64,000 nt of DNA from Erysipelotrichaceae bacterium (GCA_017473265.1 JAFULQ010000022.1:4954-68953), one strand, 5' to 3'. Positions 9,430-64,000 are shown, numbered from the stretch's first letter. The notes: generated by a model from the sequence alone, not told the origin. Numbers and translations are program-made.

Positions 9430-10272
9430 CATATTTTTCCACGGTTTAAATCCTTGTCCATGCACTTCTTGTACTTTAGAAATAATCATAAATGCTTGAT
9501 CATCAATAGCATTTACTGTTTCCTGTACTTTCGCTAAATCTTTTTGAGAAACAATAGACAACAAGGTTTTTTGATCTTTTTTATAATACCCCGTTTCTAC
9601 CTTCAACATCGTAACCCCTCTAGACAATTCATGAATAAACACATCACGCATTTCTTCAGTCTTATCACTCATTACCATAACTTGGAACTGACTTGTACCC
9701 ATAATTAAGATACGATTCATAATGAATGTCACAATCAACAAGAAAATCAATCCACATAAAATTCCACTTGTTGGCGCAAATGTTGTTTGAACTAACATAA
9801 TTGTCGCATCCATTACCCACATCGATAATCCCACCGGAATCCCAAATTTCTTTTCCAAAATTAGTGGTGGAATATCCATACCACCCGTACTTGCCCCAGA
9901 TTGTATAACCAATCCTAAGGCCAAACCGCACAATATACCAGATACAATAGCCGCTACTAATGGATCACTAGTTAAGACAAAGATTTCAGATACATTAGAT
10001 GTCATTTCTAAAAATACTGGATAAATCATTGTTGATAATAATGTAGTTAAAGCAAAACGCTTTCCCAAAAACAATAAACCAACAATAAACATAATTACAT
10101 TAATGCTTGTTACTACAGCATTAAATGGTAAATTAAAATAATGATTCGCAATTAAACTTAACCCCGTTGTACCATATGCTATAAATTCAAAAGGAAGAAT
10201 AAACATATTTACCGAAAAGGCCAATATCATATTACCAACAATAATTTTTAATAAATTCTCCCATTTTTTCAT
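9421..10272 (-). CDS. YitT family membrane protein (C-terminal DUF2179)
   Basis: It has a multi-TM N-terminus and a soluble C-terminal domain (VTMLKVETGYYKKDQKTLLSIVS...). Confidence 0.8.
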   Translation of the reverse strand: MKKWENLLKIIVGNMILAFSVNMFILPFEFIAYGTTGLSLIANHYFNLPFNAVVTSINVIMFIVGLLFLGKRFALTTLLSTMIYPVFLEMTSNVSEIFVLTSDPLVAAIVSGILCGLALGLVIQSGASTGGMDIPPLILEKKFGIPVGLSMWVMDATIMLVQTTFAPTSGILCGLIFLLIVTFIMNRILIMGTSQFQVMVMSDKTEEMRDVFIHELSRGVTMLKVETGYYKKDQKTLLSIVSQKDLAKVQETVNAIDDQAFMIISKVQEVHGQGFKPWKNMKK

Positions 10273-10375
10273 AATTCATCACCTTTTTTACTTCAAACCT
10301 TTATTAGTATAGCACAAATACGTTATCATTTATCCATTTTTGTGATATCATAAAAAAATATTAGGAGGAATATTT

Positions 10376-11707
10376 ATGCTTAATATTCTAAATATTTTTC
10401 AAAAAGCAATCTTAGAAAATACAATTGATAACAATTTATATACAATCCACGATGTTAAAAAAGGTCTTCGTAATGAAGATGGTACTGGAGTATTAATTGG
10501 TTTAACACGTATCGCTGATGTTGTTGGATATGAAAAAATAGACGGCAAAAAAGTTGATACCGAAGGTCAATTGTATTATCGTGGTATTTCTATTTTTGAT
10601 TTAACCCAAAATTTAGATAAACATAAAATTTGTGGTTTTGAAGAAATCTGTTTCTTAATTCTATTTGGACATTTACCAAATCAAGAAGAATTAGATATTT
10701 TTATGAAAGAACTACAAAGTTTATATACTTTACCAGATGGCTTTCTAGCAAACAATATCTTACGCTATCCAGGAATGAACATTATGAATAAAATGCAACG
10801 ATCTTTGTTGATGTTATATGATACAGATGAAAATGCAGATGATTGTAGTGTAGAAAACACCTTTAAACAAGGGTTATCTATTATCGCAAAAATGCCTGCT
10901 ATGCTAGCCTATGCTTATCAAGCTAAAGCACATGTTTTACATAATGAAAGTTTATACATTCATCATCCGGATACAAATGCAAGCATTGCAGAAAACATCT
11001 TGCGTATGATTCGTCCAGATTGTAAATATACAGAACTAGAAGCAAAGATTTTAGACTTATTATTAGTTTTACATGCGGACCATGGTTCTGGTAATAACTC
11101 AACCTTTACAAACATTGTTGTATCAAGCACCAATACAGATATCTATTCTGCTTTTTCTGCTAGTGTAGGTTCTTTAAAAGGCCCAAGACATGGTGGCGCA
11201 AATATAGCAAATAAGAATATGATGAAAGCTATCATAGATGAAATTGGATTAGATGCTTCGATTGAAGATATGAGAAACATCGCACATCGTTTATTAGACA
11301 AAGATTTCTATGATCAAAAAGGTTTAATCTACGGTATGGGACATGCTGTATATACTTTAAGCGATCCTAGAAGTGTTATTCTAAAACAACAAGCACAATT
11401 ATTGGCAAAAGAGAAAAACATGGAGAAAGAATTCTTATTCTATTCTCAATTTGAACAAGTTGCGAAAGAAGTTATCTACCAACGTAAAAACATTCATGTA
11501 TGTAGTAATGTTGACTTCTACAGTGGTTTCGTCTATGAAATGATGAATATTCCAGAAGATTTATATTCACCATTATTTGTCGCAAGTCGCTCCGTTGGAT
11601 GGCTTGCACACAACATTGAAAACAAATTATATTGTAATCGCATTGTACGTCCTGCAGGTAAATATGTAGGAGAAACAATGGAATACATTCCTATGGAAAA
11701 GAGGTAA
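10376..11707 (+). CDS. citrate synthase
   Basis: Motifs GPRHGGAN, GMGHAVY and NVDFYSG are present. Confidence 0.9.
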   Translation: MLNILNIFQKAILENTIDNNLYTIHDVKKGLRNEDGTGVLIGLTRIADVVGYEKIDGKKVDTEGQLYYRGISIFDLTQNLDKHKICGFEEICFLILFGHLPNQEELDIFMKELQSLYTLPDGFLANNILRYPGMNIMNKMQRSLLMLYDTDENADDCSVENTFKQGLSIIAKMPAMLAYAYQAKAHVLHNESLYIHHPDTNASIAENILRMIRPDCKYTELEAKILDLLLVLHADHGSGNNSTFTNIVVSSTNTDIYSAFSASVGSLKGPRHGGANIANKNMMKAIIDEIGLDASIEDMRNIAHRLLDKDFYDQKGLIYGMGHAVYTLSDPRSVILKQQAQLLAKEKNMEKEFLFYSQFEQVAKEVIYQRKNIHVCSNVDFYSGFVYEMMNIPEDLYSPLFVASRSVGWLAHNIENKLYCNRIVRPAGKYVGETMEYIPMEKR

Positions 11708-11712
11708 TTATT

Positions 11713-12708
11713 ATGCAAAAAGTAACACTATTTGAAGGCGATGGCATTGGACCAGAAATCACTAGAGAAGTGGTTCGCATTATCGATGCTTTACAACTAC
11801 CTATTGAATTTGAACCATATGACATTGGTAAAACCGCATTTGAAAACTGTGGAGAACTAATTCCACAAGCATCCTTAAATTCTATTAAACGCAATAAAAT
11901 TGCTTTAAAAGCACCAGTAACAACACCAATTGGACATGGTTTCCGTTCCGTAAATGTAGGACTACGCTTAGCTTTTGATTTATTTGCTAACATTCGTCCA
12001 GCAAAATCCATTCCGAATGTAAAAACACGTTATGAAGACATTGATTTAGTCGTTTTTAGAGAAAATACTGAAGACTTATACATTGGTTTAGAAGAAGAAA
12101 TTGATGAAAATACCATTCATGCGATAAAGAAAATTACACGTCATGCTTCTGAACGTATCATTCGTGCTGCATTTGATTATGCTGTTAAAAACAATCGTAA
12201 AAAAGTAACTTGTGTACATAAAGCAAATATCCTAAAGAAAAGTGATGGTTTATTCTTAAAGATTTTCAATGAAATCAAAGAAGAATACCCAACCATTGAA
12301 ACTAATGATTTAATTGTAGACAACACATGCATGCAATTAGTTATGAACCCAGAAAAATTTGATATTATGGTTATGCCAAACTTATATGGTGATATCCTAT
12401 CCGATTTAACTTCTGGACTTATTGGTGGTTTAGGACTATTACCAAGTGCAAACTTAAATGAAGAGTATGCAATCTTTGAAGCCGTACATGGTTCTGCACC
12501 AGACATTGCTGGACAAAACATCGCTAATCCTACTGCCTTATTATTAAGTGCATGTATGATGTTAGATCATATAGGTTATACAACTGAAGCAAACAAAGTT
12601 CGTCATGCAATTGAAGATGTTTATCAAAATACAACCATTCGTACAAAAGATGTAAAAGGAACTGCATCTACTACTGAATTCGCAAATGAAATTATTGCTA
12701 GATTATAA
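11713..12708 (+). CDS. icd: isocitrate dehydrogenase (isocitrate/isopropylmalate dehydrogenase family, short NAD-type)
   Basis: The NLYGDILSD motif and GSAPDIAG are present. It lies 5 nt downstream of citrate synthase. Confidence 0.85.
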   Translation: MQKVTLFEGDGIGPEITREVVRIIDALQLPIEFEPYDIGKTAFENCGELIPQASLNSIKRNKIALKAPVTTPIGHGFRSVNVGLRLAFDLFANIRPAKSIPNVKTRYEDIDLVVFRENTEDLYIGLEEEIDENTIHAIKKITRHASERIIRAAFDYAVKNNRKKVTCVHKANILKKSDGLFLKIFNEIKEEYPTIETNDLIVDNTCMQLVMNPEKFDIMVMPNLYGDILSDLTSGLIGGLGLLPSANLNEEYAIFEAVHGSAPDIAGQNIANPTALLLSACMMLDHIGYTTEANKVRHAIEDVYQNTTIRTKDVKGTASTTEFANEIIARL

Positions 12709-12737
12709 AAGAAAAGCCTTCTAAAAGGCTTTTTTTA
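12708..12737. terminator. bidirectional intrinsic terminator (icd / glycosyltransferase)
   Basis: The hairpin is AAAAGCCTT-CTAA-AAGGCTTTT followed by a T run. Confidence 0.7.
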
Positions 12738-13824
12738 TGTATTCTATAATAAGTTTTGCTCCACCACTATTTCCCAGTGCATCATGTATCATATCCTGCA
12801 CTCTATTCATACTCTCTTTCATACCCGTATCCATCATTACAGAACTTACTAAACTCTTTAATGCCTGCATATCATCTAATTTTTTACCAACACCTAGTTT
12901 TTCCACACACTCTGCATTCACAAATTGATCCGATGCAAACGGTATAACTACCATAGGTACTCCATATACAAGTGCTTCAGATACACTATTCATCCCACCA
13001 TGATTAACAAATACATCCGCTATTTTTAACACTTCTATTTGAGGAACACGTGTATAGATATGAATATTACTTGGAACAGATTTCAATTTTCGTATATCGA
13101 AATTTCCACAAGACAGAATCACATCTACATCTTCATTTTTAAAATCTTCGATACATTGATTAAAGAACGCTTTAGCCCCTTTCACAATCGTACCCAATGA
13201 AATGTAGATAATAGGTCTTGTTTTAACAAACAAAAATTCTTCATTCCTATCATAAATAGATGGTCCTAAAAATTTATACAAATCATTTGAAAAATCCTCT
13301 ATATATGGTTGATATTCCTTCAATGTATATACCAAATTCAATCCAGCCGGATTATATACAATTTCATCCAACCAATTATCGGTTTTCATAGAAATATCTT
13401 TCGCAATATCTTTAGTAAAAGCTTTATTAATCCATTTACACTTAAAAATAGATAACGGCCCTTTTTCAATAAATCTCTCCATTAATACTTTATTGGTGAC
13501 AGGTGCTGTAAACACACGAACAGCAGGTTTCTGATATTTTTCAGCTAAATGCTTACCAAGAAAAAAGAATTGTTCATAAATAATGCCATCAAAATGAGAA
13601 ATAATCTTTTCAGCACTCGCATATGCATGCTTCATCTGTTCAGCTAATTGCTTATGATTGTTATAACCACAAAATACAGCTCCACTAGCTTTTATTTTAT
13701 CTTCCCAATCATATGGCAACATATACGTTACTTCACAACCTTGCGCAATCAATTCCTGTACTAAACCAATGGTTGGTACCACATGACCATAGTATGGCAA
13801 ATTAATAAATAATAACTTCATCAT
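12721..13824 (-). CDS. GT1 family UDP-glycosyltransferase (MGT / YjiC-like)
   Basis: The C-terminal UDPGT signature region is present: HGGMNSVSEALVYGVPMVVIPFASDQ. Confidence 0.8.
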   Translation of the reverse strand: MMKLLFINLPYYGHVVPTIGLVQELIAQGCEVTYMLPYDWEDKIKASGAVFCGYNNHKQLAEQMKHAYASAEKIISHFDGIIYEQFFFLGKHLAEKYQKPAVRVFTAPVTNKVLMERFIEKGPLSIFKCKWINKAFTKDIAKDISMKTDNWLDEIVYNPAGLNLVYTLKEYQPYIEDFSNDLYKFLGPSIYDRNEEFLFVKTRPIIYISLGTIVKGAKAFFNQCIEDFKNEDVDVILSCGNFDIRKLKSVPSNIHIYTRVPQIEVLKIADVFVNHGGMNSVSEALVYGVPMVVIPFASDQFVNAECVEKLGVGKKLDDMQALKSLVSSVMMDTGMKESMNRVQDMIHDALGNSGGAKLIIEYIKKAF

Positions 13825-13881
13825 GATACCTCCATTCTATTTTTATTCTAACATAAAAAAAGGCATATACTGCCTTTTCAC

Positions 13882-14610
13882 TTAAACAATCAATGGTAAG
13901 ATATAACTCACCCATAACCAACTTAACGGTATAACTAATACCATCGAAACCACCATATCCGCTAAAGGAAAATCTTTAATCTTCATCATGCGTAATCCTG
14001 TCGCAATGACTAACAATCCACCACAAGCCTTAAAATCCGCAAACATACTTGCTGTTACATATGGCATAATTACACCAGATAAAGCAAATAAACTCAAAAA
14101 CACAATCCCTTGTGGAATGGCAATAGCACTAACTACCATACCCAATTGACTAGCAAAAATCGCAGCTGTAAAGAAATCCAAAACCGATTTAGAAATCAAA
14201 ATCGTAGGATCCCCACTTATACCTTCAACCAAACTACCATAAATACCCGTACCACTAGCACAAAACAAAACAATAATCATGACTAATGTTTGCATATACT
14301 CAGTTTCACTTAGTTCACTTTGATTCTTAAACACTCTAGAAATTCCTTTTTCTAAAAATTTAGCACCTTTTTGAACATAATCACTAACATGCAACAACAT
14401 CCCAATAGCAGTACCTACAATAATACTCATAACTACCACAGGCATATTTTGCATACCTACAATCGAAGGAATACCTATTGCAATTGAACTTAATCCAAAT
14501 AATAAAGTTAATTCATTTTTAATGCGAGTTGGAATATATTTACCAACTAAAACACCAAAGATACCACCAAAAAATACAGAACATATATTAATCGTTATTC
14601 CAATCGGCAT
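13882..14610 (-). CDS. DUF554 family membrane protein
   Basis: It is a polytopic membrane protein starting MPIGITINICSVFFGGIFG, which resembles YdfK/YqgA-type proteins. Confidence 0.75.
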   Translation of the reverse strand: MPIGITINICSVFFGGIFGVLVGKYIPTRIKNELTLLFGLSSIAIGIPSIVGMQNMPVVVMSIIVGTAIGMLLHVSDYVQKGAKFLEKGISRVFKNQSELSETEYMQTLVMIIVLFCASGTGIYGSLVEGISGDPTILISKSVLDFFTAAIFASQLGMVVSAIAIPQGIVFLSLFALSGVIMPYVTASMFADFKACGGLLVIATGLRMMKIKDFPLADMVVSMVLVIPLSWLWVSYILPLIV

Positions 14611-55790: not shown

Positions 55791-57122
55791 CTATTCACCA
55801 CTAATTGATAAACTTGTAAACAAGATAGATGGAGCGCTTGCACTAGATAATGCATCCTCTAAATCACTACCCACTACTTCTACTTCTTTCATCATCTCTA
55901 AGAAATTACCAGCTACAGTAATTAAGTTAACTGGTTTTACAATCTTACCATTTTCAACATAATACCCGGCTGCCTGTAATGAGAAATCCGTAGTAATTGG
56001 ATTCAATCCTGCATGTAAACCATTGATTTCATCAATAATCAAGCCACAATCCATTTGTTCAACCAACGCATCAAATGACACATCACTTGGTTGGATATAG
56101 AAATTGGTTGGATGAATCCCTACACTACTTGCATAACCACTCTTAAAGCCATTACCTGTTGAAGTTGTGTTCATTTGTGCCGCAGATTTTTGGTTATGTA
56201 AGAATAATTTTAACACGCCATTTTCTACTACTGTTTTAGTATAAGAAGTTACACCTTCATCATCAAATGGAGTGCTATTAATTCCATCTTTCTTTAAAGG
56301 ATCATCTAAAATCGTAATCTTTTCATCAAAGATCATTTCATTCATCTTATCTTTTAATTTACTAATTCCTTTATACACTTGTTCTCCATCAAACAACCCA
56401 GTAAAAGCTCCCAACAAAGAACTCATCGCATTATTTTTAAGAATCACTTTATATTTACCCGTTTTTACTTGTGTCGCATTCAATTTTGAACAAACTTTTT
56501 CTTTTAGTTTTTCAACATATTCATCAATTGGACATTCATCAAAACTATGCATAACCTTAATTTCATATGCACTCTTATTGTCATTATTTTCTTGTGCCAA
56601 TACAGAAGAATAGAATACAGTATACGATTCTTGTTTATGCAAATCCATACCCAAAGAATTGTAAATTTGCGTTTGTACTTGTTGCGTTTCCATTAAACTA
56701 CCCATCACTTGTACAATACGTGGATCACTTTGTGCTAATTTGCTTTCTACTTCTTTTAAATATGCTATTTTTTCACTCGCATCCACATTTACTAATTGGT
56801 TTTCGGTTACTTCTACACTAGGATATTCGTTATCTCCTGCATAAATGAAAGATGGTTCATCTAGTTCTAATGATTTCGCATTTTCCATTAACATTTGTAA
56901 ACAAGTATCAATATTATCATCACTATCTTCTTCTACGAAACAATAGCCCATTTTACCATTGTAAATACCACGAATAGCCATACCACCACTTTGGGCAATT
57001 GTTAAAGCATCTACTTTTTGAGCAAACACTTCAATTGATTGTTTTTCTGATTTTTGAATATACACTTCAATCGGATCAATTTGTAAAGCTTTCGCTTTTT
57101 CCATTAATTTAGAAATATTCAT
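55791..57122 (-). CDS. pmbA: TldD/PmbA family metalloprotease, PmbA-like subunit
   Basis: It is 443 aa and paired with tldD through an ATG/stop overlap at 57122. Confidence 0.85.
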   Translation of the reverse strand: MNISKLMEKAKALQIDPIEVYIQKSEKQSIEVFAQKVDALTIAQSGGMAIRGIYNGKMGYCFVEEDSDDNIDTCLQMLMENAKSLELDEPSFIYAGDNEYPSVEVTENQLVNVDASEKIAYLKEVESKLAQSDPRIVQVMGSLMETQQVQTQIYNSLGMDLHKQESYTVFYSSVLAQENNDNKSAYEIKVMHSFDECPIDEYVEKLKEKVCSKLNATQVKTGKYKVILKNNAMSSLLGAFTGLFDGEQVYKGISKLKDKMNEMIFDEKITILDDPLKKDGINSTPFDDEGVTSYTKTVVENGVLKLFLHNQKSAAQMNTTSTGNGFKSGYASSVGIHPTNFYIQPSDVSFDALVEQMDCGLIIDEINGLHAGLNPITTDFSLQAAGYYVENGKIVKPVNLITVAGNFLEMMKEVEVVGSDLEDALSSASAPSILFTSLSISGE

Positions 57123-58504
57123 TATTCTCTACCTCCAACAATCATTTGACTTACACGAATCGCTGGTTGACCAACATCCGTTGGAATAGAACCACTACTA
57201 GAACCACACATACCTTGCGCACGTTTTAAATTATTGCCTACTTTATCAATCTTTAATAATGTTTCTGCACCATTACCAATTAAACTAGCACCTTTAACTG
57301 GTTTTGTAATCTTACCATCTTGAATTAAATATCCTTCTTGTACCGCAAAGTTAAAATCACCAGTAGAAGGATCTACACTACCACCACTCATACTCTTACA
57401 ATATAAACCATATGGTGTATCCGCAATCATTTCTTCCAATGTATCTTCACCATTTAGAATAAAGGTATTTGTCATACGAGAAGTTGTTTCATATTTATAA
57501 GATTGACGTCTACTATTTGAAGTAGATGGCATACCCATTCTTCTACCATTTAACGTATCAATCATATATCCTTTTAAGATACCATTTTCAATTAATAGAT
57601 TACGTTTTGTAAAATTACCTTCATCATCCACATTACTAGAACCCCAAGCATTAGTGATTGTACCATCATCCACAGCACTTACTTTGCTACTCGCAATCTT
57701 TTCTCCTAATTTGCCACTAAATACAGACTGATTTTTCGCTACAGAAGATGCTTCTAAAGAATGTCCACAAGCCTCATGGAAAATAACGCCACCAAATCCA
57801 TTATCAATAATAACTGGCATATTTCCACTTGGACATTCATCGGCATATACTAATGTTTTCGCAATACGTGCAGCTTCTTTACCTGCTTCATATGGATTCA
57901 TTTCACTATAGAACTCAAAACCTTTACTAGCCCCTGGTCCATAGAAACCTGTTTCCATTTTGTCACCATCAATCGCAATGACTTGAATAGCTAAACGAGT
58001 ACGAATACGAGTATCTTGTACATATTTACCTTCTGTATTACTAATCGCTACTTCTTGTTTTTCATCTAAATAACGAACCATCACTTTTTGAATCACAGGA
58101 TCATATTCACTAGCACCTTGTGTTGCTAATTTAGCCACTTTAATCTTTTCTTCACTAGAAACATTTGTAGGATCCATTAAAATAGGATGTTGATTTTCAT
58201 ATACAACTTCAATCAATTCCTTACAAGATACTTTCTTTTCTTCATCATAAGAAGCAGATAAATCCTTAGCCATCTTACGTAAATTATCCATACTGGTATC
58301 ATTAGAATACGCATATACACTCTCTGTGCCATGATAAATACGCATACCAATACCATATACAATACCACTATTGGCTTGTTCAACTTGACCATTCAATAAA
58401 CCATAAGAATGTGTTGTTTTCTTTTCTTCAAAGATTTCCGCAAAATCTCCACCCGTAGATACACACACATCTAAGATTTCTTGTAATTGTTGTTTTTCTA
58501 ACAT
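57122..58504 (-). CDS. tldD: TldD metalloprotease
   Basis: The zinc site HEACGHSLE is present. I placed the start at ATG 58504 (MLEKQQLQEILD) behind AGAGGTG. Confidence 0.88.
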   Translation of the reverse strand: MLEKQQLQEILDVCVSTGGDFAEIFEEKKTTHSYGLLNGQVEQANSGIVYGIGMRIYHGTESVYAYSNDTSMDNLRKMAKDLSASYDEEKKVSCKELIEVVYENQHPILMDPTNVSSEEKIKVAKLATQGASEYDPVIQKVMVRYLDEKQEVAISNTEGKYVQDTRIRTRLAIQVIAIDGDKMETGFYGPGASKGFEFYSEMNPYEAGKEAARIAKTLVYADECPSGNMPVIIDNGFGGVIFHEACGHSLEASSVAKNQSVFSGKLGEKIASSKVSAVDDGTITNAWGSSNVDDEGNFTKRNLLIENGILKGYMIDTLNGRRMGMPSTSNSRRQSYKYETTSRMTNTFILNGEDTLEEMIADTPYGLYCKSMSGGSVDPSTGDFNFAVQEGYLIQDGKITKPVKGASLIGNGAETLLKIDKVGNNLKRAQGMCGSSSGSIPTDVGQPAIRVSQMIVGGRE

Positions 58505-58596
58505 AATGTTCACCTCTAAATAGTATTGTACTACAAAATAGGCTTTCTTCCTAAGAATAAGACGCAAATTTCCATAATCTATAGTGGAGGAAATTT

Positions 58597-59367
58597 ATGT
58601 ACACCACCTTACTCTATGCTTTTTTAGGAACGATGTTTCCCTTTATTCTTACTACCATTGGTTCTGCATTAGTTATATTTTTGAAAAAACCACCCAACAA
58701 AAGTTTTGAGCGCGTATTATTAGGCTTTGCCTCTGGGGTTATGATAGCCGCAAGCATTTGGTCTTTATTATTACCTGCCATAGAAAGTGCACAAGCACAA
58801 GGAACACATGGATGGATTGTGGCTAGTTTAGGATTTTTGTTTGGCGGTATTTTTCTATTACTCACAGACTTTTTATTAGACAAATTCAATACATTTAAAA
58901 CACCCAAACAAAAACGTAATTTTCTATTTTTCTTTGCAGTAACGATGCATAATATTCCAGAAGGCATGGCAGTCGGTATTGCTTTTGCTCTAGCACTAAA
59001 TTCAACCAATATAACACTTGCAAGTGCTATCGCTTTATCCATTGGTATTGCATTACAAAATCTACCAGAAGGCATGGCCATTTCTTTACCACTCTATCAA
59101 AGTGGATATCCTAAATGGAAAGCCTTCCTACTAGGTTCTTTAAGTGGTATTGTAGAACCTATTATCGGAACACTTACTGCTTTTTGTTTTTATCAATTAC
59201 AAAGCTTTTTACCCTGGTTATTATCCTTTGCGGCTGGAGCGATGATTTATGTCGTTTGTGAAGAACTAATTCCCGAAAAAGAAGGAAAAGACAAATGCCA
59301 TCGTAAAACCATTGGGGTAATGCTTGGCTTTACCATTATGATGATATTGGATGTTGCCTTAGGATAA
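58597..59367 (+). CDS. ZIP family metal (zinc) transporter
   Basis: HNIPEGMAVG and QNLPEGMA are present. Confidence 0.88.
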   Translation: MYTTLLYAFLGTMFPFILTTIGSALVIFLKKPPNKSFERVLLGFASGVMIAASIWSLLLPAIESAQAQGTHGWIVASLGFLFGGIFLLLTDFLLDKFNTFKTPKQKRNFLFFFAVTMHNIPEGMAVGIAFALALNSTNITLASAIALSIGIALQNLPEGMAISLPLYQSGYPKWKAFLLGSLSGIVEPIIGTLTAFCFYQLQSFLPWLLSFAAGAMIYVVCEELIPEKEGKDKCHRKTIGVMLGFTIMMILDVALG

Positions 59368-59389
59368 TTTTCTATTTATAATTAAGCAT

Positions 59390-61939
59390 ATGAAAAAGAC
59401 AGTAATCGGAATTGTAGCGCACGTAGACGCAGGAAAAACAACATTATCAGAAAGTATCTTATACCTAACAAATACCATTCGTAAAAAAGGTAGAGTGGAT
59501 CATAAAGATACCCATCTAGATTATGATAACCAAGAAAAAGATCGTGGAATAACGATCTTTTCAAAGCAGGCTCGATTCAATTATTTAGATACACAATTCA
59601 CGTTAATTGATACTCCAGGACATGTAGACTTCAGTAGCGAAATGGAACGAAGCCTACAAGTTTTAGACTGCGCAATTCTAGTTATTAATGGTTGTGATGG
59701 TGTACAAAGTCATACGGAAACCATTTGGAAACTACTAAAACACCATCAAATACCAACCATTGTATTCATTAACAAAATGGATATTAGTTATCTAACCAAA
59801 GAAACTATTTTAGAACAATTACACAAATTAGATATGAATATTGTAGATATCACAGAATCATACGCAGAAGCCTATGATACCATCGCAACCAATAGCGAAG
59901 AACTATTAGAAAAAGTATTATCAGAAACAATTACCGTAAAAGATATCCAACAAGAATTCAATCAATTACATGTATATCCATGTATCTTTGGTAGTGCTTT
60001 AAAAGAAGATAAAGTAGACACCTTACTTGAAACATTAAATGAATTAACCATCCAAAAACAATATCCACAAACTTTTGGTGCTAAAATCTACAAAGTCACT
60101 CATGAAGACAATAAACGTTGGGTACATATGAAAATTACTGGTGGTACTTTAAAAGCAAAAGAGATTATCAACGAAGAAAAAATTGATCAAATTCGTTTAT
60201 ATAACATGGATAAATACGAAACCGTAACTGAAGTATCTGCAGGTGATGTTTGCACCGTATCTGGACTTACTTTACAAGCCAATGATGCATTAGGTTATGA
60301 ATCCAATAATACACCAATCCTATCAAGTTATATGAAATATCGTATGGTATTACCTAAAGATTGTGATGTACAAACAATGTTACGTAATTTACAACTTCTA
60401 GCAGATGAAGATCCTGAATTAAAAATCTCATTTGATGATGATGTTAAAGAAATCCATCTACAATTAATGGGTGAAATTCAAATCGAAATTCTTAAAAATA
60501 TCATCAAACAAAGATTCAATGTCGATGTAGACTTTGACCATGGTAGTGTAGTTTTTATGGAAACGATTACCGAAGCAGTAGAAGGTGTTGGACACTTTGA
60601 ACCACTTAGACACTATGCAGAAGTTCATTTGTTATTAGAACCTCTTCCTAGAGGCAGTGGACTTGTATTTGATACCAAATGTGATGAAGATCGTTTAGCT
60701 AAAAACTGGCAACGATTAATATTAACTCACTTATATGAAAAGAAACATAAAGGTGTTTTAACCGGTTCTACCATTACCGATATGAAAATCAGTTTAGTAT
60801 CAGGTAAAGCACATATCAAACACACTGAAGGTGGCGACTTTAGACAAGCAACCTATCGTGCAGTAAGACATGGTTTACGTACAACAAAATCTTTACTATT
60901 AGAACCATATTATCAATACAAATTGGTTATCCCTTCTAGTTATTTATCTAGAGCTATTTATGATATTGAACAAAGAAATGGTACATTCACTATTGAAGAA
61001 AATGATAATGATTTATGCATTCTAACAGGAAAAGCTCCAGTAAGAAAACTAGCGAACTATCAAATGGAAGTTTTAAACTACTCTAAAGGATTAGGCAAAT
61101 TAACTTGTTCTTTAGATGGTTATGATAAATGTGTAGATGCAGAAGAAATCATTACTACTATTAACTATGATTGTGATAATGACGCTGAAAACCCTTGTGG
61201 TTCTGTCTTCTGTGAAGGTGGTGCTGGATTCTATGTGCCATACAACGAAGTTGAACAATATATGCATCTAAAAATGACATATACTAAACAAGCCCCAGAA
61301 CGTATAATCAGTGCACAACCACGCAAATACAATATTTCTGATGAAGAATTAAAACGTGTAGTTTCTAGAATACATGGTCCTGAAAGACCTAAGAAAGTAA
61401 TAGAAGCCAAGAAAGTAAAAGCAGAAGTAAAAACACCAGCAAAACCAGTAACTATCAAAAAGAAATGTGTATTGGTTGATGGATATAACATTATCCATTC
61501 ATGGGAAGAATTAAAAGAACTAGCTAGCCATCAATTAGACGCTGCTAGAGACAAATTAATAGATTTACTATCTAGTTATCAAGCCTATAAAAAATGTCTA
61601 CTTATCGTCGTATTTGATGCCTACAAAGTAAAAAGCCACGTAGGTTCTCAACACTACAATGGCAACATTCATATTGTATTCACAAAAACCGCACAAACAG
61701 CAGATGAATACATTGAAAAAACAGCTCATGAACTAAGTAAAGACTATCAAATCACAGTTGCGACTAGTGATGCTTTAGAACAATTAATCGTCTTTGGACA
61801 AGGTGCAGTACGTATTTCTGCTAGAGAATTCGAAAGAGAAATCAAATACTTACACACATCCAACACCAAAGAATACCAAAGCAAACAAACAGGTGGACAC
61901 TATCCACTACAAGAATTACGGAAATTAAACGAGGAATAA
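59390..61939 (+). CDS. Tet(M)/EF-G-like translational GTPase fused to a C-terminal YacP/Rae1-type NYN ribonuclease domain
   Basis: G1 is AHVDAGKT, G3 is DTPGH and G4 is NKMD. The body shows Tet(M)-like blocks (LPRGSGLVFD, LLLEPYYQYKLVIPSSYLSRAIYD, ILTGKAPVRKLANYQ). A K/P-rich linker follows. The NYN motifs are VLVDGYNIIH, IVVFDAY, FTKTAQTADEYIEK, VATSDALEQ and GQGAVRISAREF. It is a single uninterrupted 849-codon frame. Confidence 0.85.
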   Translation: MKKTVIGIVAHVDAGKTTLSESILYLTNTIRKKGRVDHKDTHLDYDNQEKDRGITIFSKQARFNYLDTQFTLIDTPGHVDFSSEMERSLQVLDCAILVINGCDGVQSHTETIWKLLKHHQIPTIVFINKMDISYLTKETILEQLHKLDMNIVDITESYAEAYDTIATNSEELLEKVLSETITVKDIQQEFNQLHVYPCIFGSALKEDKVDTLLETLNELTIQKQYPQTFGAKIYKVTHEDNKRWVHMKITGGTLKAKEIINEEKIDQIRLYNMDKYETVTEVSAGDVCTVSGLTLQANDALGYESNNTPILSSYMKYRMVLPKDCDVQTMLRNLQLLADEDPELKISFDDDVKEIHLQLMGEIQIEILKNIIKQRFNVDVDFDHGSVVFMETITEAVEGVGHFEPLRHYAEVHLLLEPLPRGSGLVFDTKCDEDRLAKNWQRLILTHLYEKKHKGVLTGSTITDMKISLVSGKAHIKHTEGGDFRQATYRAVRHGLRTTKSLLLEPYYQYKLVIPSSYLSRAIYDIEQRNGTFTIEENDNDLCILTGKAPVRKLANYQMEVLNYSKGLGKLTCSLDGYDKCVDAEEIITTINYDCDNDAENPCGSVFCEGGAGFYVPYNEVEQYMHLKMTYTKQAPERIISAQPRKYNISDEELKRVVSRIHGPERPKKVIEAKKVKAEVKTPAKPVTIKKKCVLVDGYNIIHSWEELKELASHQLDAARDKLIDLLSSYQAYKKCLLIVVFDAYKVKSHVGSQHYNGNIHIVFTKTAQTADEYIEKTAHELSKDYQITVATSDALEQLIVFGQGAVRISAREFEREIKYLHTSNTKEYQSKQTGGHYPLQELRKLNEE

Positions 61940-61942
61940 CAA

Positions 61943-62851
61943 ATGAATACACTAACCTTTATTGGTGGTAATCAAAAAGAAATAAATGCTATTCTTTGGT
62001 TACCAGAAACAAAACCAAACTATATTCTACAAATCGTACACGGTATGACTGAGCATATTGGACGATACCACAACTTCGCAAAAGAATTAAATACATATGG
62101 TATAGGTGTAGTAGGATTTGACTTACGAGGTCATGGACACAATGACTCATTGCCTCAAATTGCTTCATTTAAAGAAGATGGTTGGCAAGCTTCATTAGAA
62201 GACATTCATGCTTGTAAACAAGCCATTATCAAACAATATCCAAATACTCCAATCTATATTTTAGGATTCTCATTAGGCTCATTTTTAGTAAGAGAATATC
62301 TAAGTCTATATCCTGAACATATAGCTGGAGCCATTATTGTAGGAACAGGAAAACAACCAAAAGCAATATTATCTATAATTAAAGCACTAGTAAAAAAAGA
62401 AATTCAAAAAAATGGTTTCAACCAAACAACATCACTAGTTAAAAAACTTTCATTTGAAACCTATAACCAAAAATTTAAACCAAATCGCACAGAAGCCGAT
62501 TGGTTATGTGCCGACAAACAAGAATTGGATAACTATCTAAATGATCCACTATGTCGCAAATACATTTCTAGTGGTCTATTCTATCAATTACTAGACTCTA
62601 TGCAAAAAACAGGAGAAAATAACATCTATACAAATTATCCTAACATTCCATATCTACTATTATCTGGAGAAAAAGATGCAGTAGGAGATTTTACAAAAGG
62701 TATTTTACAAGTTCAAAAAGACATGGAAAAACACCAATTACAAGTAGAAACGCATCTACTACCAAATGCTCGACATGATATTTTCCATGAAATAGACACT
62801 GGAACAACAAATAATGTAATTCAAATTATTCATCATTGGATTAAAAAGTAA
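61943..62851 (+). CDS. alpha/beta hydrolase (lysophospholipase / monoglyceride-lipase-like)
   Basis: HGMTEH, the nucleophile elbow GFSLGS and the C-terminal ARHDIFHE are present. Confidence 0.8.
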   Translation: MNTLTFIGGNQKEINAILWLPETKPNYILQIVHGMTEHIGRYHNFAKELNTYGIGVVGFDLRGHGHNDSLPQIASFKEDGWQASLEDIHACKQAIIKQYPNTPIYILGFSLGSFLVREYLSLYPEHIAGAIIVGTGKQPKAILSIIKALVKKEIQKNGFNQTTSLVKKLSFETYNQKFKPNRTEADWLCADKQELDNYLNDPLCRKYISSGLFYQLLDSMQKTGENNIYTNYPNIPYLLLSGEKDAVGDFTKGILQVQKDMEKHQLQVETHLLPNARHDIFHEIDTGTTNNVIQIIHHWIKK

Positions 62852-63017
62852 TATAAAAAAGCTGTAATATGGTCAACATTAAATTTAATACGACCACTAC
62901 TACAGCTTATTTTATTTCCCTTTATATTTTCTTCCCATTACCATAATCTTTCCATAACTAATAACATTTTGATGAGCCTTTTTAATTATCAAACATCGGA
63001 AATTTAGTTCGTTATAC

Positions 63018-63052
63018 AAAAAGGATATCAAATCCTTAGATTTGATATCCTT
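63018..63052 (-). terminator. intrinsic terminator of the second CWB2 gene
   Basis: On the minus strand the hairpin is AAGGATATCAAATC-TAAG-GATTTGATATCCTT followed by TTTTT. Confidence 0.7.
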
Positions 63053-63063
63053 AATTCATTTAT

Positions 63064-64000
63064 TTATTTTTTGAAAATAGCATCTTTAGCTTCATCAGTA
63101 ACTAACTTATTACCACCCAATACATAACCAGCTGTAATATTTTGGCTATTTGTATACTTAGCTGTAATACTGAAGTTAGCCTTTTGCCCATTTGTTAATA
63201 ATAATGGAGATTGTAATGCATACGCTAATGCTCCACCACTTAATCCATCAGGGAAATTAGTTGCTAATGCTACTACTGCATAACTTGGTTTTTCAAAATA
63301 CTTATCAGCTACCATTACTGATGTTTCATATCTTGATGATCCTGCTAAACGACTTACATTTTCATATTCTTTCTTCAATTCTTTTTCTACAGTCTTATTA
63401 ACTGCTCCTTCTCCACCAACAATAACTACATTGGTTTCTGGTAATGTTTCCATAAAGAATACTTTTTGTCTTGCCGTTAAGTTCTTACCAACTAATAACA
63501 TTGGTTGTCCTGTTGCACTTGCACTTAAACTATCTGCAAAATTCGTTCCTGTACATACTAGTAAATCATTATATCCTACACCACCAGCTCTTCTTAAAAT
63601 CGCTAAGTTCGTTTCATATCTATCATTACCAGCTAAACGCTCTATTGCAAATCCATTTAATTGTTTTTCTACTTTATCACTTACTGCAGCTGTTCCACCT
63701 AAAATAAACACGATTCCATCTGCTTTTAAGTTTGTCTTAATATAGTCAACTAATTTTTGGATATTCGCATCTTTCTTATCTGTCATTAAGATAGGTGCAT
63801 TTTGTTTACTTGATAAGTAAGAACCAGCTAATGCATCCGCAAAGTTTGTTCCATTTGCTACGATTACTGCATCAAATTTTTCTACACCCAATGTTAATTT
63901 TAATGCATCCGCTACTTTAAATGCTGTTTCATAACGAGAAGCACCAAATACACGAGTAACACCTGTACATACTGTACTACCTTCTGGTAGCTTAGAACCT
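63064..64000 (-). CDS. cell-wall-binding (CWB2) repeat protein, C-terminal part (N-terminus beyond the window end)
   Basis: The frame stays open upstream of the track TTG start through to position 64000 (...GSKLPEGSTVCTGVTRVFGASRYETAFKVADALKLTLGVEKF...). Three CWB2 repeats are visible (FGASRYETA, RLAGNDRYETN, RLAGSSRYETS). Confidence 0.8.
   Translation of the reverse strand, partial: GSKLPEGSTVCTGVTRVFGASRYETAFKVADALKLTLGVEKFDAVIVANGTNFADALAGSYLSSKQNAPILMTDKKDANIQKLVDYIKTNLKADGIVFILGGTAAVSDKVEKQLNGFAIERLAGNDRYETNLAILRRAGGVGYNDLLVCTGTNFADSLSASATGQPMLLVGKNLTARQKVFFMETLPETNVVIVGGEGAVNKTVEKELKKEYENVSRLAGSSRYETSVMVADKYFEKPSYAVVALATNFPDGLSGGALAYALQSPLLLTNGQKANFSITAKYTNSQNITAGYVLGGNKLVTDEAKDAIFKK

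Follow-up and report, generated by a model that had tools for sequence, protein, structure and literature searches.

A translational GTPase fused to a Rae1-type NYN nuclease in an Erysipelotrichaceae bacterium: a candidate ribosome-anchored mRNA endonuclease

Two described systems stand closest to the gene analysed here. Rae1 (YacP) of Bacillus subtilis, a stand-alone protein of 170 amino acids (aa), cuts messenger RNA (mRNA) in a way that depends on translation (Deves et al. 2025; PMC10351889). It does so at stalled and collided ribosomes, feeding transfer-messenger RNA (tmRNA) (Deves et al. 2025; Tetreault 2026, PMC13622287), and, making tmRNA substrates from collided ribosomes, it was placed in collision rescue (Tetreault 2026, PMC13622287). 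Its association with the ribosome is transient, and no bound structure exists (Tetreault 2026, PMC13622287). The tetracycline ribosomal-protection proteins Tet(O) and Tet(M) (Protein Data Bank (PDB) 4V6V, 3J9Y) are GTPases whose domain IV loop dislodges tetracycline (Atkinson 2015). Fusions of the two kinds of protein have already been catalogued. Atkinson 2015 (BMC Genomics, Additional file 8, with sequences supplied) reported the acquisition of an NYN RNase domain similar to YacP by the Tet proteins of ten species of clostridia, the list naming Ruminococcus albus, Eubacterium rectale, E. eligens, Butyrivibrio, Clostridium thermocellum, C. cellulolyticum, C. phytofermentans, and Desulfitobacterium hafniense. 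In some Clostridia, fusions of TetM with NYN_YacP were also noted by Matelska et al. 2017 (NAR), who termed their role unclear. Here, we describe such a fusion gene at positions 59390-61939, plus strand, of a stretch of 64,000 nucleotides (nt) from an Erysipelotrichaceae bacterium (GCA_017473265.1 JAFULQ010000022.1:4954-68953), called the window in the following.

The novelty implied by an earlier, sequence-only reading of this DNA is overstated in view of the two papers. Its remark that no functional description was known agrees with our full-text literature search, not exhaustive for Rae1 papers, in which no functional study of the fusion family was found; a term search of the Tetreault 2026 preprint (PMC13622287) gave no relevant occurrence of a GTPase fusion, and none is described in the introduction and discussion of Deves et al. 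2025. The window gene is a further member of this catalogued family, for which no functional study was found. The published fusions share with the window protein the co-linear architecture and the motifs GHFEPLRHYAEVHL, KHTEGGDFRQATYRAVRQGL, SVFC.HGAG, LLVDGYNII, and VATSD; likewise, GHFEPLRHYAEV, AH.KHTEGGDFRQAT, and SVFC..GAGF...YMH are present both in the window protein and in the sequences of Atkinson.

The gene consists of a single open reading frame (ORF) of 849 codons with an ATG start and zero internal stops, encoding a translational GTPase, a small module behind domain V, a tether, and a Rae1-type NYN nuclease. With moderate confidence, we regard the protein as a ribosome-anchored version of the mRNA endonuclease Rae1 as far as the general mechanism is concerned, the choice of ribosome state being less certain. 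Its features are the following, all on the plus strand.

59390..61939, plus strand: whole fusion ORF (translational GTPase, post-domain-V module, tether, Rae1-type NYN nuclease), 849 aa plus stop, by Pfam
59402..60046, plus strand: G domain, residues 5-219, with a helical G'-like insert (Pfam GTP_EFTU, E 1.1e-51)
59417-59440, plus strand: G1 motif AHVDAGKT, residues 10-17
59552-59554, plus strand: G2 Thr55, by motif
59609-59623, plus strand: G3 motif DTPGH, residues 74-78, including the catalytic His78
59771-59782, plus strand: G4 motif NKMD, residues 128-131
60077..60295, plus strand: domain II beta-barrel, about residues 230-302 (Pfam EF-G_D2 weak, below the gathering cut-off; all-beta in the AlphaFold2 model; EF-G fold match)
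60365..60535, plus strand: domain III, residues 326-382 (Pfam EFG_III, E 8.8e-11)
60545..60886, plus strand: domain IV, residues 386-499 (Pfam EFG_IV, E 8.3e-17)
60584-60625, plus strand: family-specific domain IV loop I GVGHFEPLRHYAEV, near-invariant across the family
60809..60853, plus strand: domain IV tip motif AHIKHTEGGDFRQAT, residues 474-488, by alignment to Tet(O) and Thermus thermophilus EF-G
60896..61132, plus strand: domain V, residues 503-581 (Pfam EFG_C, E 8.1e-16)
61136..61285, plus strand: post-domain-V module, residues 583-632 (...NP.GSVFC..GAGF.V.Y.EV..YMH), no Pfam family, predicted local distance difference test score (pLDDT) about 96
61286..61468, plus strand: tether of 61 aa, residues 633-693, Lys/Pro-rich in its second half (AlphaFold2)
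61340..61375, plus strand: predicted amphipathic helix of the tether, DEELKRVVSRIH, with [DE]EL..IF.RTYG as consensus of the family (AlphaFold2 helix 651-662)
61469..61897, plus strand: Rae1/YacP-type NYN endoribonuclease domain, residues 694-836 (Pfam NYN_YacP, E 4.8e-50)
61478-61480, 61616-61618, 61703-61705, and 61769-61771, plus strand: acidic active-site residues D697, D743, D772, and D794, by alignment
61898..61936, plus strand: C-terminal tail HYPLQELRKLNEE, resembling L..LE..RRG of stand-alone Rae1 (alignment with four of them; AlphaFold2 helix 841-848)

The covalent fusion proposed by the sequence-only reading is borne out by the order of the Pfam domains and by co-linear homologues. 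Each model that it had named for a search (GTP_EFTU, EFG_III/IV/C, and NYN_YacP) was found, NYN_YacP above its cut-off and with the catalytic aspartates intact, and the motifs that it had quoted (AHVDAGKT, DTPGH, NKMD, LVDGYN, VVFDA, TADE, ATSD, GQGA.R.SARE) are all present. The NYN domain is C-terminal as it had stated, starting at nt 61469 rather than at about 61460, and the Lys/Pro-rich linker exists, only the second half of the 61-aa tether being rich in these residues and the tether also holding a conserved helix.

Since the nearest in-frame stop 5' of the ATG lies at 59360 and no canonical start follows between this stop and the ATG, the ATG at 59390 is a fixed start. Four metagenome contigs, assembled independently of one another, encode exactly this product of 849 aa, and therefore the reading frame is no sequencing accident. 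Co-linear full-length homologues with 39-98% identity number in the hundreds, finished genomes included. That a sequencing or assembly error joined adjacent GTPase and yacP genes, the two-gene alternative that the earlier reading had set against its own proposal, is thus next to impossible, as no stop separates the domains; the merging of two neighbouring genes was ruled out by the continuous frame, the four contigs, and the hundreds of co-linear homologues.

A HMMER scan covered 1.84 billion representative proteins, of which the best 150 matches, all at 612 bits or more and with 39-54% identity, were taken for comparison. The GTPase is present in 150/150 and the NYN domain in 146/150 of these best matches, and the fusion family comprises at least 146 clusters at 50% identity, distributed over Clostridia and Erysipelotrichia. 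In the alignment of the 146 fused members, D13, G15, K16, T55, D74-G77, K129, and D131 of the GTPase are invariant and H78 is conserved in at least 90%, while D697, Y699, N700, D743, D772, and D794 of the NYN domain are invariant. This means that both enzymatic halves are selected to stay active, and the sequences indicate strong purifying selection on the GTPase-NYN architecture. An AlphaFold2 model built on the same alignment reached a mean pLDDT of 92.7 and a predicted template modelling score of 0.75.

Residues 1-582 make up a complete translational GTPase of the EF-G/Tet type, which has all five domains and whose G motifs are intact. The features by which the translational GTPase superfamily is recognised, namely the G1-G4 motifs, the catalytic His after DxxG, and a domain II beta-barrel, were all found, and in Foldseek the body matches ribosome-bound and free EF-G structures (E 1.5e-51). 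Among solved structures, Tet(O) and Tet(M) are the closest relatives of this part, with the same five domains, and from residue 3 to residue 582 it can be aligned co-linearly with Tet(O) (4V6V; E 3.5e-73). Indeed, the best matches in NCBIfam and the PDB are tetracycline ribosomal-protection proteins, and NCBI labels some family members as TetM/TetW/TetO/TetS family. On this basis, the protein could be a ribosomal-protection protein in which the RNase domain adds a second resistance mechanism, an idea raised in Atkinson 2015; for several reasons, we consider it highly unlikely. The scores stay below half the curated cut-offs, with 378.1 bits against 775 for tet_protect (NF012153) and 286.5 bits against 1100 for the Tet(M/W/O/S) model (NF033148). 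GLYYSPVSTPADFR of Tet(O) is aligned with GKAHIKHTEGGDFRQ of the window protein, so that the YYSPVS loop of the Tet proteins is replaced, the aligned position reading KAHIKHTEGG, by a near-invariant motif that keeps an EF-G-like His. In the structures of Tet(M), it is the YSPVS loop that reaches the tetracycline site. Past domain V, the Tet proteins continue for about 25 further residues, whereas the window protein carries a module of about 50 aa, the tether, and the nuclease. Unlike Tet proteins, it is not found on mobile elements: the gene is native, chromosomal, and non-mobile, its GC content (33.1%) matches that of the window (32.8%), and only 2/72,556 plasmid records, both large and non-mobilizable, carry a family member. 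Its conservation across Clostridia and Erysipelotrichia is core-like. A tetracycline-resistance protein was thus rejected on the hidden Markov model cut-offs, the loop sequence, and the genomic setting, in line with the suggestion of the sequence-only reading, which had also noted the missing YSPVS.

Public annotation does not follow this separation in every case, as P0004, P0016, and the Agathobacter rectalis copy H2 (NZ_CP143948.1 24809-25660) are annotated as TetM/TetW/TetO/TetS resistance proteins despite scores far beneath the curated cut-offs. Because of such Tet-type automatic annotation and the abundance of the family in gut Firmicutes, the fusions could inflate counts of the gut resistome as false positives.

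Compared with EF-G, the overall fold and the G motifs are common to both proteins at an identity of about 23%, the score of the EF-G equivalog TIGR00484 being 259.9 bits against a cut-off of 659.4. At the tip of domain IV, His573 of T. thermophilus EF-G is aligned with H475 of the window protein, whereas loop I is four residues shorter than, and unrelated to, GGRGQYGH of EF-G. In the 146-member alignment of the tip, H475, K477, H478, T479, F484, and A487 are conserved in at least 90% and D483 is invariant. Marked by GHFEPLRHYAEV and AH.KHTEGGDFRQAT in domain IV, the GTPase is assigned by its signature to a subfamily of its own.

Four complete homologues of about 650 aa carry no nuclease (L015, L017, P0267, and P0268), the first two being located in Neobacillus cucumis (NZ_PGVE01000017.1, L015:5144-7090) and in a Clostridiales metagenome-assembled genome (SVGN01000009.1, L017:5788-7755). 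They keep GHFEPL.HYAE and AH.KHT.GGDFR and end just past the ...SVFC..G.G..V.W.E...YMH module, and no NYN domain was found within the 10 kb fetched downstream of them. That the subfamily motifs persist in such proteins, together with the very strong conservation of the domain IV tip, suggestive of an active part played in the decoding centre, lends some weight to the view that the GTPase body has a job of its own, for example in ribosome recycling or back-translocation on stalled ribosomes, a job that the nuclease-less homologues would share, the NYN domain being a co-localised accessory. As 146/150 of the best representatives keep the NYN domain with invariant catalytic residues, we consider this view unlikely; it is compatible with a ribosome-anchored Rae1 and not exclusive of it. 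Stand-alone Rae1 is present in other Neobacillus species (P0322, P0376), and together with the nuclease-less members this amounts to a link of the Rosetta-stone type between the GTPase and Rae1. The nuclease-less homologues may therefore represent partners with which Rae1 is not fused.

Among the representatives, no other effector domain recurred on this GTPase chassis. In one protein of 873 aa (P0251), the GTPase and the post-domain-V module are followed by Aminotran_4 in place of the NYN domain. It is probably a chimera of gene calling or assembly; if real, it would be an alternative effector on the same GTPase.

Turning to the nuclease, the match to NYN_YacP (PF05991) scores 170.2 bits against a gathering cut-off of 24.6, and the domain aligns with residues 4-133 of B. 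subtilis YacP/Rae1 (PDB 5MQ8/5MQ9; E 2e-29), the two having the NYN_YacP fold, about 45-48% identity over the domain, the four acidic residues, and a similar tail in common. In the alignment to 5MQ8, D697 corresponds to D7 and D772 to D81 of B. subtilis, a pair whose double mutation inactivates Rae1 (PMC10351889). With all catalytic aspartates intact, the fused domain is predicted to be an active nuclease. In a neighbour-joining tree, a split groups 145/146 fused NYN domains together with 0/40 stand-alone Rae1, the latter taken from Bacilli and Peptostreptococcales only, and this is consistent with one ancient fusion event. No residue was found that consistently separates the fused from the stand-alone domains, and therefore the generic Rae1 chemistry appears to be retained in the fusion.

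A different target has to be weighed here, namely that the NYN domain is brought to the ribosome for maturation, turnover, or hibernation and acts on ribosomal RNA (rRNA) or transfer RNA (tRNA) instead of mRNA. NYN_YacP was first predicted to serve in rRNA/tRNA maturation, yacP lying beside mrnC and rlmB (Matelska 2017), and a nuclease tethered to the ribosome would be close to rRNA. Rae1, from which the fused domain shows no consistent departure in sequence, has however been found by experiment to cut mRNA, and in a translation-dependent way, and no rRNA-processing genes adjoin the window gene, which leaves this possibility doubtful in our view. Stand-alone rae1 is situated in a cysS-mrnC-rlmB-rae1-sigH cluster, the rlmB-rae1-sigH neighbourhood being seen in B. 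subtilis, C. difficile, and Listeria, whereas the window gene lies between genes for a ZIP transporter and a hydrolase. Within the window, a second NYN copy is absent, and so is the canonical rlmB/sigH/nusG neighbourhood. The best 120 matches of a profile search with stand-alone Rae1 were from Listeria, Bacillus, and Peptostreptococcaceae.

Between the two enzymes lie the module and the tether. The post-domain-V module is carried by 145 of the 150 best-scoring representatives and is probably a small structural metal-binding knuckle, as suggested by its pattern of potential ligands, which is C581-H582...C608-x-H610 (C-H...C-x-H) in most members. The lineage of the window has V582 and G610, but gained C595 and C603, resulting in four cysteines (C581, C595, C603, C608). 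H626, within YMH, was found in 131/146 members. Counted between the end of YMH and the NYN start, the linker measures 57-144 aa with a median of 84 in the 146 members and 67 aa in the window protein. The copy described here thus differs from the published fusions by its origin in an Erysipelotrichales-like organism, by its short tether of 67 aa against the median of 84 and by its four-Cys module against the usual C-H...C-x-H.

In the AlphaFold2 model, only residues 638-648 and 666-681 of the protein have a pLDDT below 50 and are predicted to be disordered. Within the tether, the predicted helix is conserved at E653 (127/146), I657 (121/146), and G663 (94/146). With its consensus [DE]EL..IF.RTYG, it shares an acidic-hydrophobic-basic-Gly pattern with the tail at the C-terminus of stand-alone Rae1, such as EEVLKTFEKWRRG, and the window protein carries both, the helix at 61340-61375 and the Rae1-like tail at 61898-61936. 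Tether helix and Rae1 tail may be a shared docking motif.

As for the mode of action, a role in ribosome surveillance, which the sequence-only reading had favoured, is the most plausible reading. Its premise of a Rae1 cut made in the A site is superseded (Deves et al. 2025), and Tetreault 2026 (PMC13622287) places the enzyme in collision rescue. Nor is a GTPase-gated route of the nuclease into the A site supported, because domain IV would itself fill this site, which it cannot share with the nuclease, the NYN domain being held on a partly disordered tether of 57-144 aa. As a ribosome-anchored Rae1, the protein would instead use its GTPase as anchor and sensor, the GTP form docking in the factor-binding site of a ribosome that is unable to advance. 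The likeliest target would be the trailing, rotated ribosome of a collision, or else a ribosome that has stalled while its A site is empty. Domain IV would occupy the A site and hold the protein in place, while the tether would let the NYN domain cut the mRNA just outside the ribosome, the cut falling at the disome interface about 12 nt upstream of the codon in the leading ribosome's A site, where Rae1 cuts. On the truncated mRNA, the ribosomes would become substrates for rescue by tmRNA/SmpB, and GTP hydrolysis would afterwards free the factor. In this way, the fusion would swap the transient ribosome association of Rae1, to which the GTPase is covalently joined here, for a built-in, nucleotide-controlled anchor. 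The variant with the trailing ribosome would be the best geometric fit, since the mRNA entering the trailing ribosome is the stretch leaving the leading one, where Rae1 cuts. In support of the mechanism, a tether of 57-144 aa is always present and the catalytic residues of both enzymes are intact. The EF-G-like body in the confident AlphaFold2 model, the purifying selection, the grouping of the fused NYN domains, the native chromosomal setting, and the Rosetta-stone link speak for it as well.

Several points weigh against such a ribosome-anchored Rae1. Both the ribosome state recognised and the reach of the NYN domain are deduced from geometry, and Tet(O) and Tet(M) are the nearest relatives of the GTPase by sequence. 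The ribosomes that these two proteins bind are non-rotated and have their A site empty. The Tet-like sequence therefore fits the variant with the stalled ribosome better than that with the trailing ribosome. Furthermore, a conserved association with ssrA/smpB or further genes of ribosome rescue was not seen in the 16 loci compared.

Known factors that act on mRNA at stalled or collided ribosomes offer a functional analogy only. In SmrB/Cue2 and MutS2 (RqcU), a part that recognises the ribosome or the collision is combined with a small nuclease-type domain, and MutS2, like the window protein, couples an NTPase to it. They differ from the window protein in having unrelated folds (SMR domain, MutS-type ATPase) and in what they recognise, which is the interface of the disome on the 30S subunits instead of the factor-binding site used by GTPases.

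The closest named relatives of the window protein belong to the Erysipelotrichales, with Traorella at 64% and Thomasclavelia spiroformis at 56% identity, and Lachnospiraceae, Oscillospiraceae, and Blautia contain members that are more distant. One complete fusion gene (best tblastn segment at 46% identity) lies at 10001-12490 of CAVJLG010000039.1 (L019), a contig from a bin labelled Barnesiella intestinihominis (Bacteroidota), where a second translational-GTPase gene of 528 aa is found at 12702-14288, convergent and 212 nt downstream of the fusion. This locus represents either a contaminated bin or gene transfer out of Firmicutes. In the phage collection, family members were seen only at MT835563.1 7221-7964 and MT835514.1 17028-17792, two unannotated human-faecal 'Bacteriophage sp.' contigs. 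Both encode the post-domain-V module plus the NYN domain with 37-40% identity, and they are mis-binned bacterial DNA or true phage-borne copies.

Ribosome-dependent mRNases such as RelE act by shutting off translation, and the protein might in the same manner be a toxin triggered by stress or phage, its GTPase being directed to ribosomes globally and its nuclease destroying translated mRNAs in an abortive-infection-like response. Besides the two faecal contigs, a speculation in Tetreault 2026 (PMC13622287) that Rae1 defends against phage mRNAs speaks for it. Yet a search against PADLOC-DB 2.0 gave 0 defence-family matches for the fusion protein and both neighbours, the neighbours vary and include neither an antitoxin-like gene nor a defence island, and, with a wide distribution that looks vertical and a GC content that is native, the gene is unlike typical defence genes. 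Taken together, a shut-off toxin is very improbable.

The surroundings of the window gene are as follows.

59354..59382, plus strand: promoter-like site TTGCCT-17-TATAAT, a consensus match only, ending 7 nt 5' of the ATG
58597..59367, plus strand: ZIP metal transporter gene (Pfam Zip, E 4.1e-32), 22 nt upstream of the fusion gene, not conserved in relatives
61943..62851, plus strand: alpha/beta hydrolase gene, 3 nt downstream of the fusion gene, not conserved in relatives
63021..63052, no strand assigned: bidirectional terminator-like hairpin closing the transcription unit
55791-58567, minus strand: TldD/PmbA metallopeptidase pair, upstream
63064-63891, minus strand: downstream gene for a protein with three CWB2 cell-wall-binding repeats

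No Shine-Dalgarno sequence was found ahead of the ATG at 59390, and the promoter-like site, which is the best such match of the region, where sites of this kind are not enriched, ends 7 nt before it. The fusion mRNA may for these reasons be leaderless, or its expression may be coupled to the ZIP gene ending 22 nt upstream. In a public assembly of the same DNA (L087), an opposite-strand ORF of 155 aa is annotated in place of the ZIP transporter gene. On the other side, the GAGGAA ribosome-binding site of the hydrolase gene overlaps the last codons of the fusion ORF, and therefore the two genes are probably co-transcribed. An Rfam scan of 57000-64000 gave no match to an RNA element or riboswitch.

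Across the 16 loci compared, no constant gene partner was found; in T. spiroformis, for instance, a MATE transporter gene is located upstream and gltX, convergent, downstream. A MATE-family transporter gene adjoins the fusion in five of the 16 loci (L001:8618-9949, L003:2857-4200, L005:12803-14104, L007:6670-8091, and L011:10527-13357), the L001 copy having been called by Pfam MatE and the other four grouped with it by BLASTP. The adjacency recalls a known target of Rae1 in B. subtilis, the multidrug exporter operon bmrBXCD. MATE genes are possibly numerous in these genomes, and the adjacency could be chance.

New in our analysis are the extent of the family, the line drawn between it and true Tet proteins, and the near-invariant domain IV signature, as well as the post-domain-V module with its CHCH/CCCC ligand swap, the tether helix, the nuclease-less members, and a proposed mechanism reconciled with the Rae1 data of 2025-2026. 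The fusion itself will be no surprise to specialists in translational GTPases, but it bears on how Rae1 engages ribosomes. More tentatively, the GTPase subfamily, with or without nuclease, might be the missing ribosome-state sensor of the Rae1 pathway, being fused in Clostridia and Erysipelotrichia and acting in some Bacilli as a nuclease-less paralogue in trans with Rae1, a possibility that we put forward as speculative. A fusion of this kind offers an experimental handle, as the GTPase can be locked by a non-hydrolysable GTP analogue; if the proposal is true, the locked fusion would be a tool for showing how the Rae1 nuclease sits on the ribosome. The subfamily would then also be the first case in bacteria of a translational GTPase licensing a no-go-type cut of mRNA on ribosomes that have stalled or collided. 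The widespread natural tie between Rae1 and an EF-G-like GTPase points to the factor-binding site as a docking platform.

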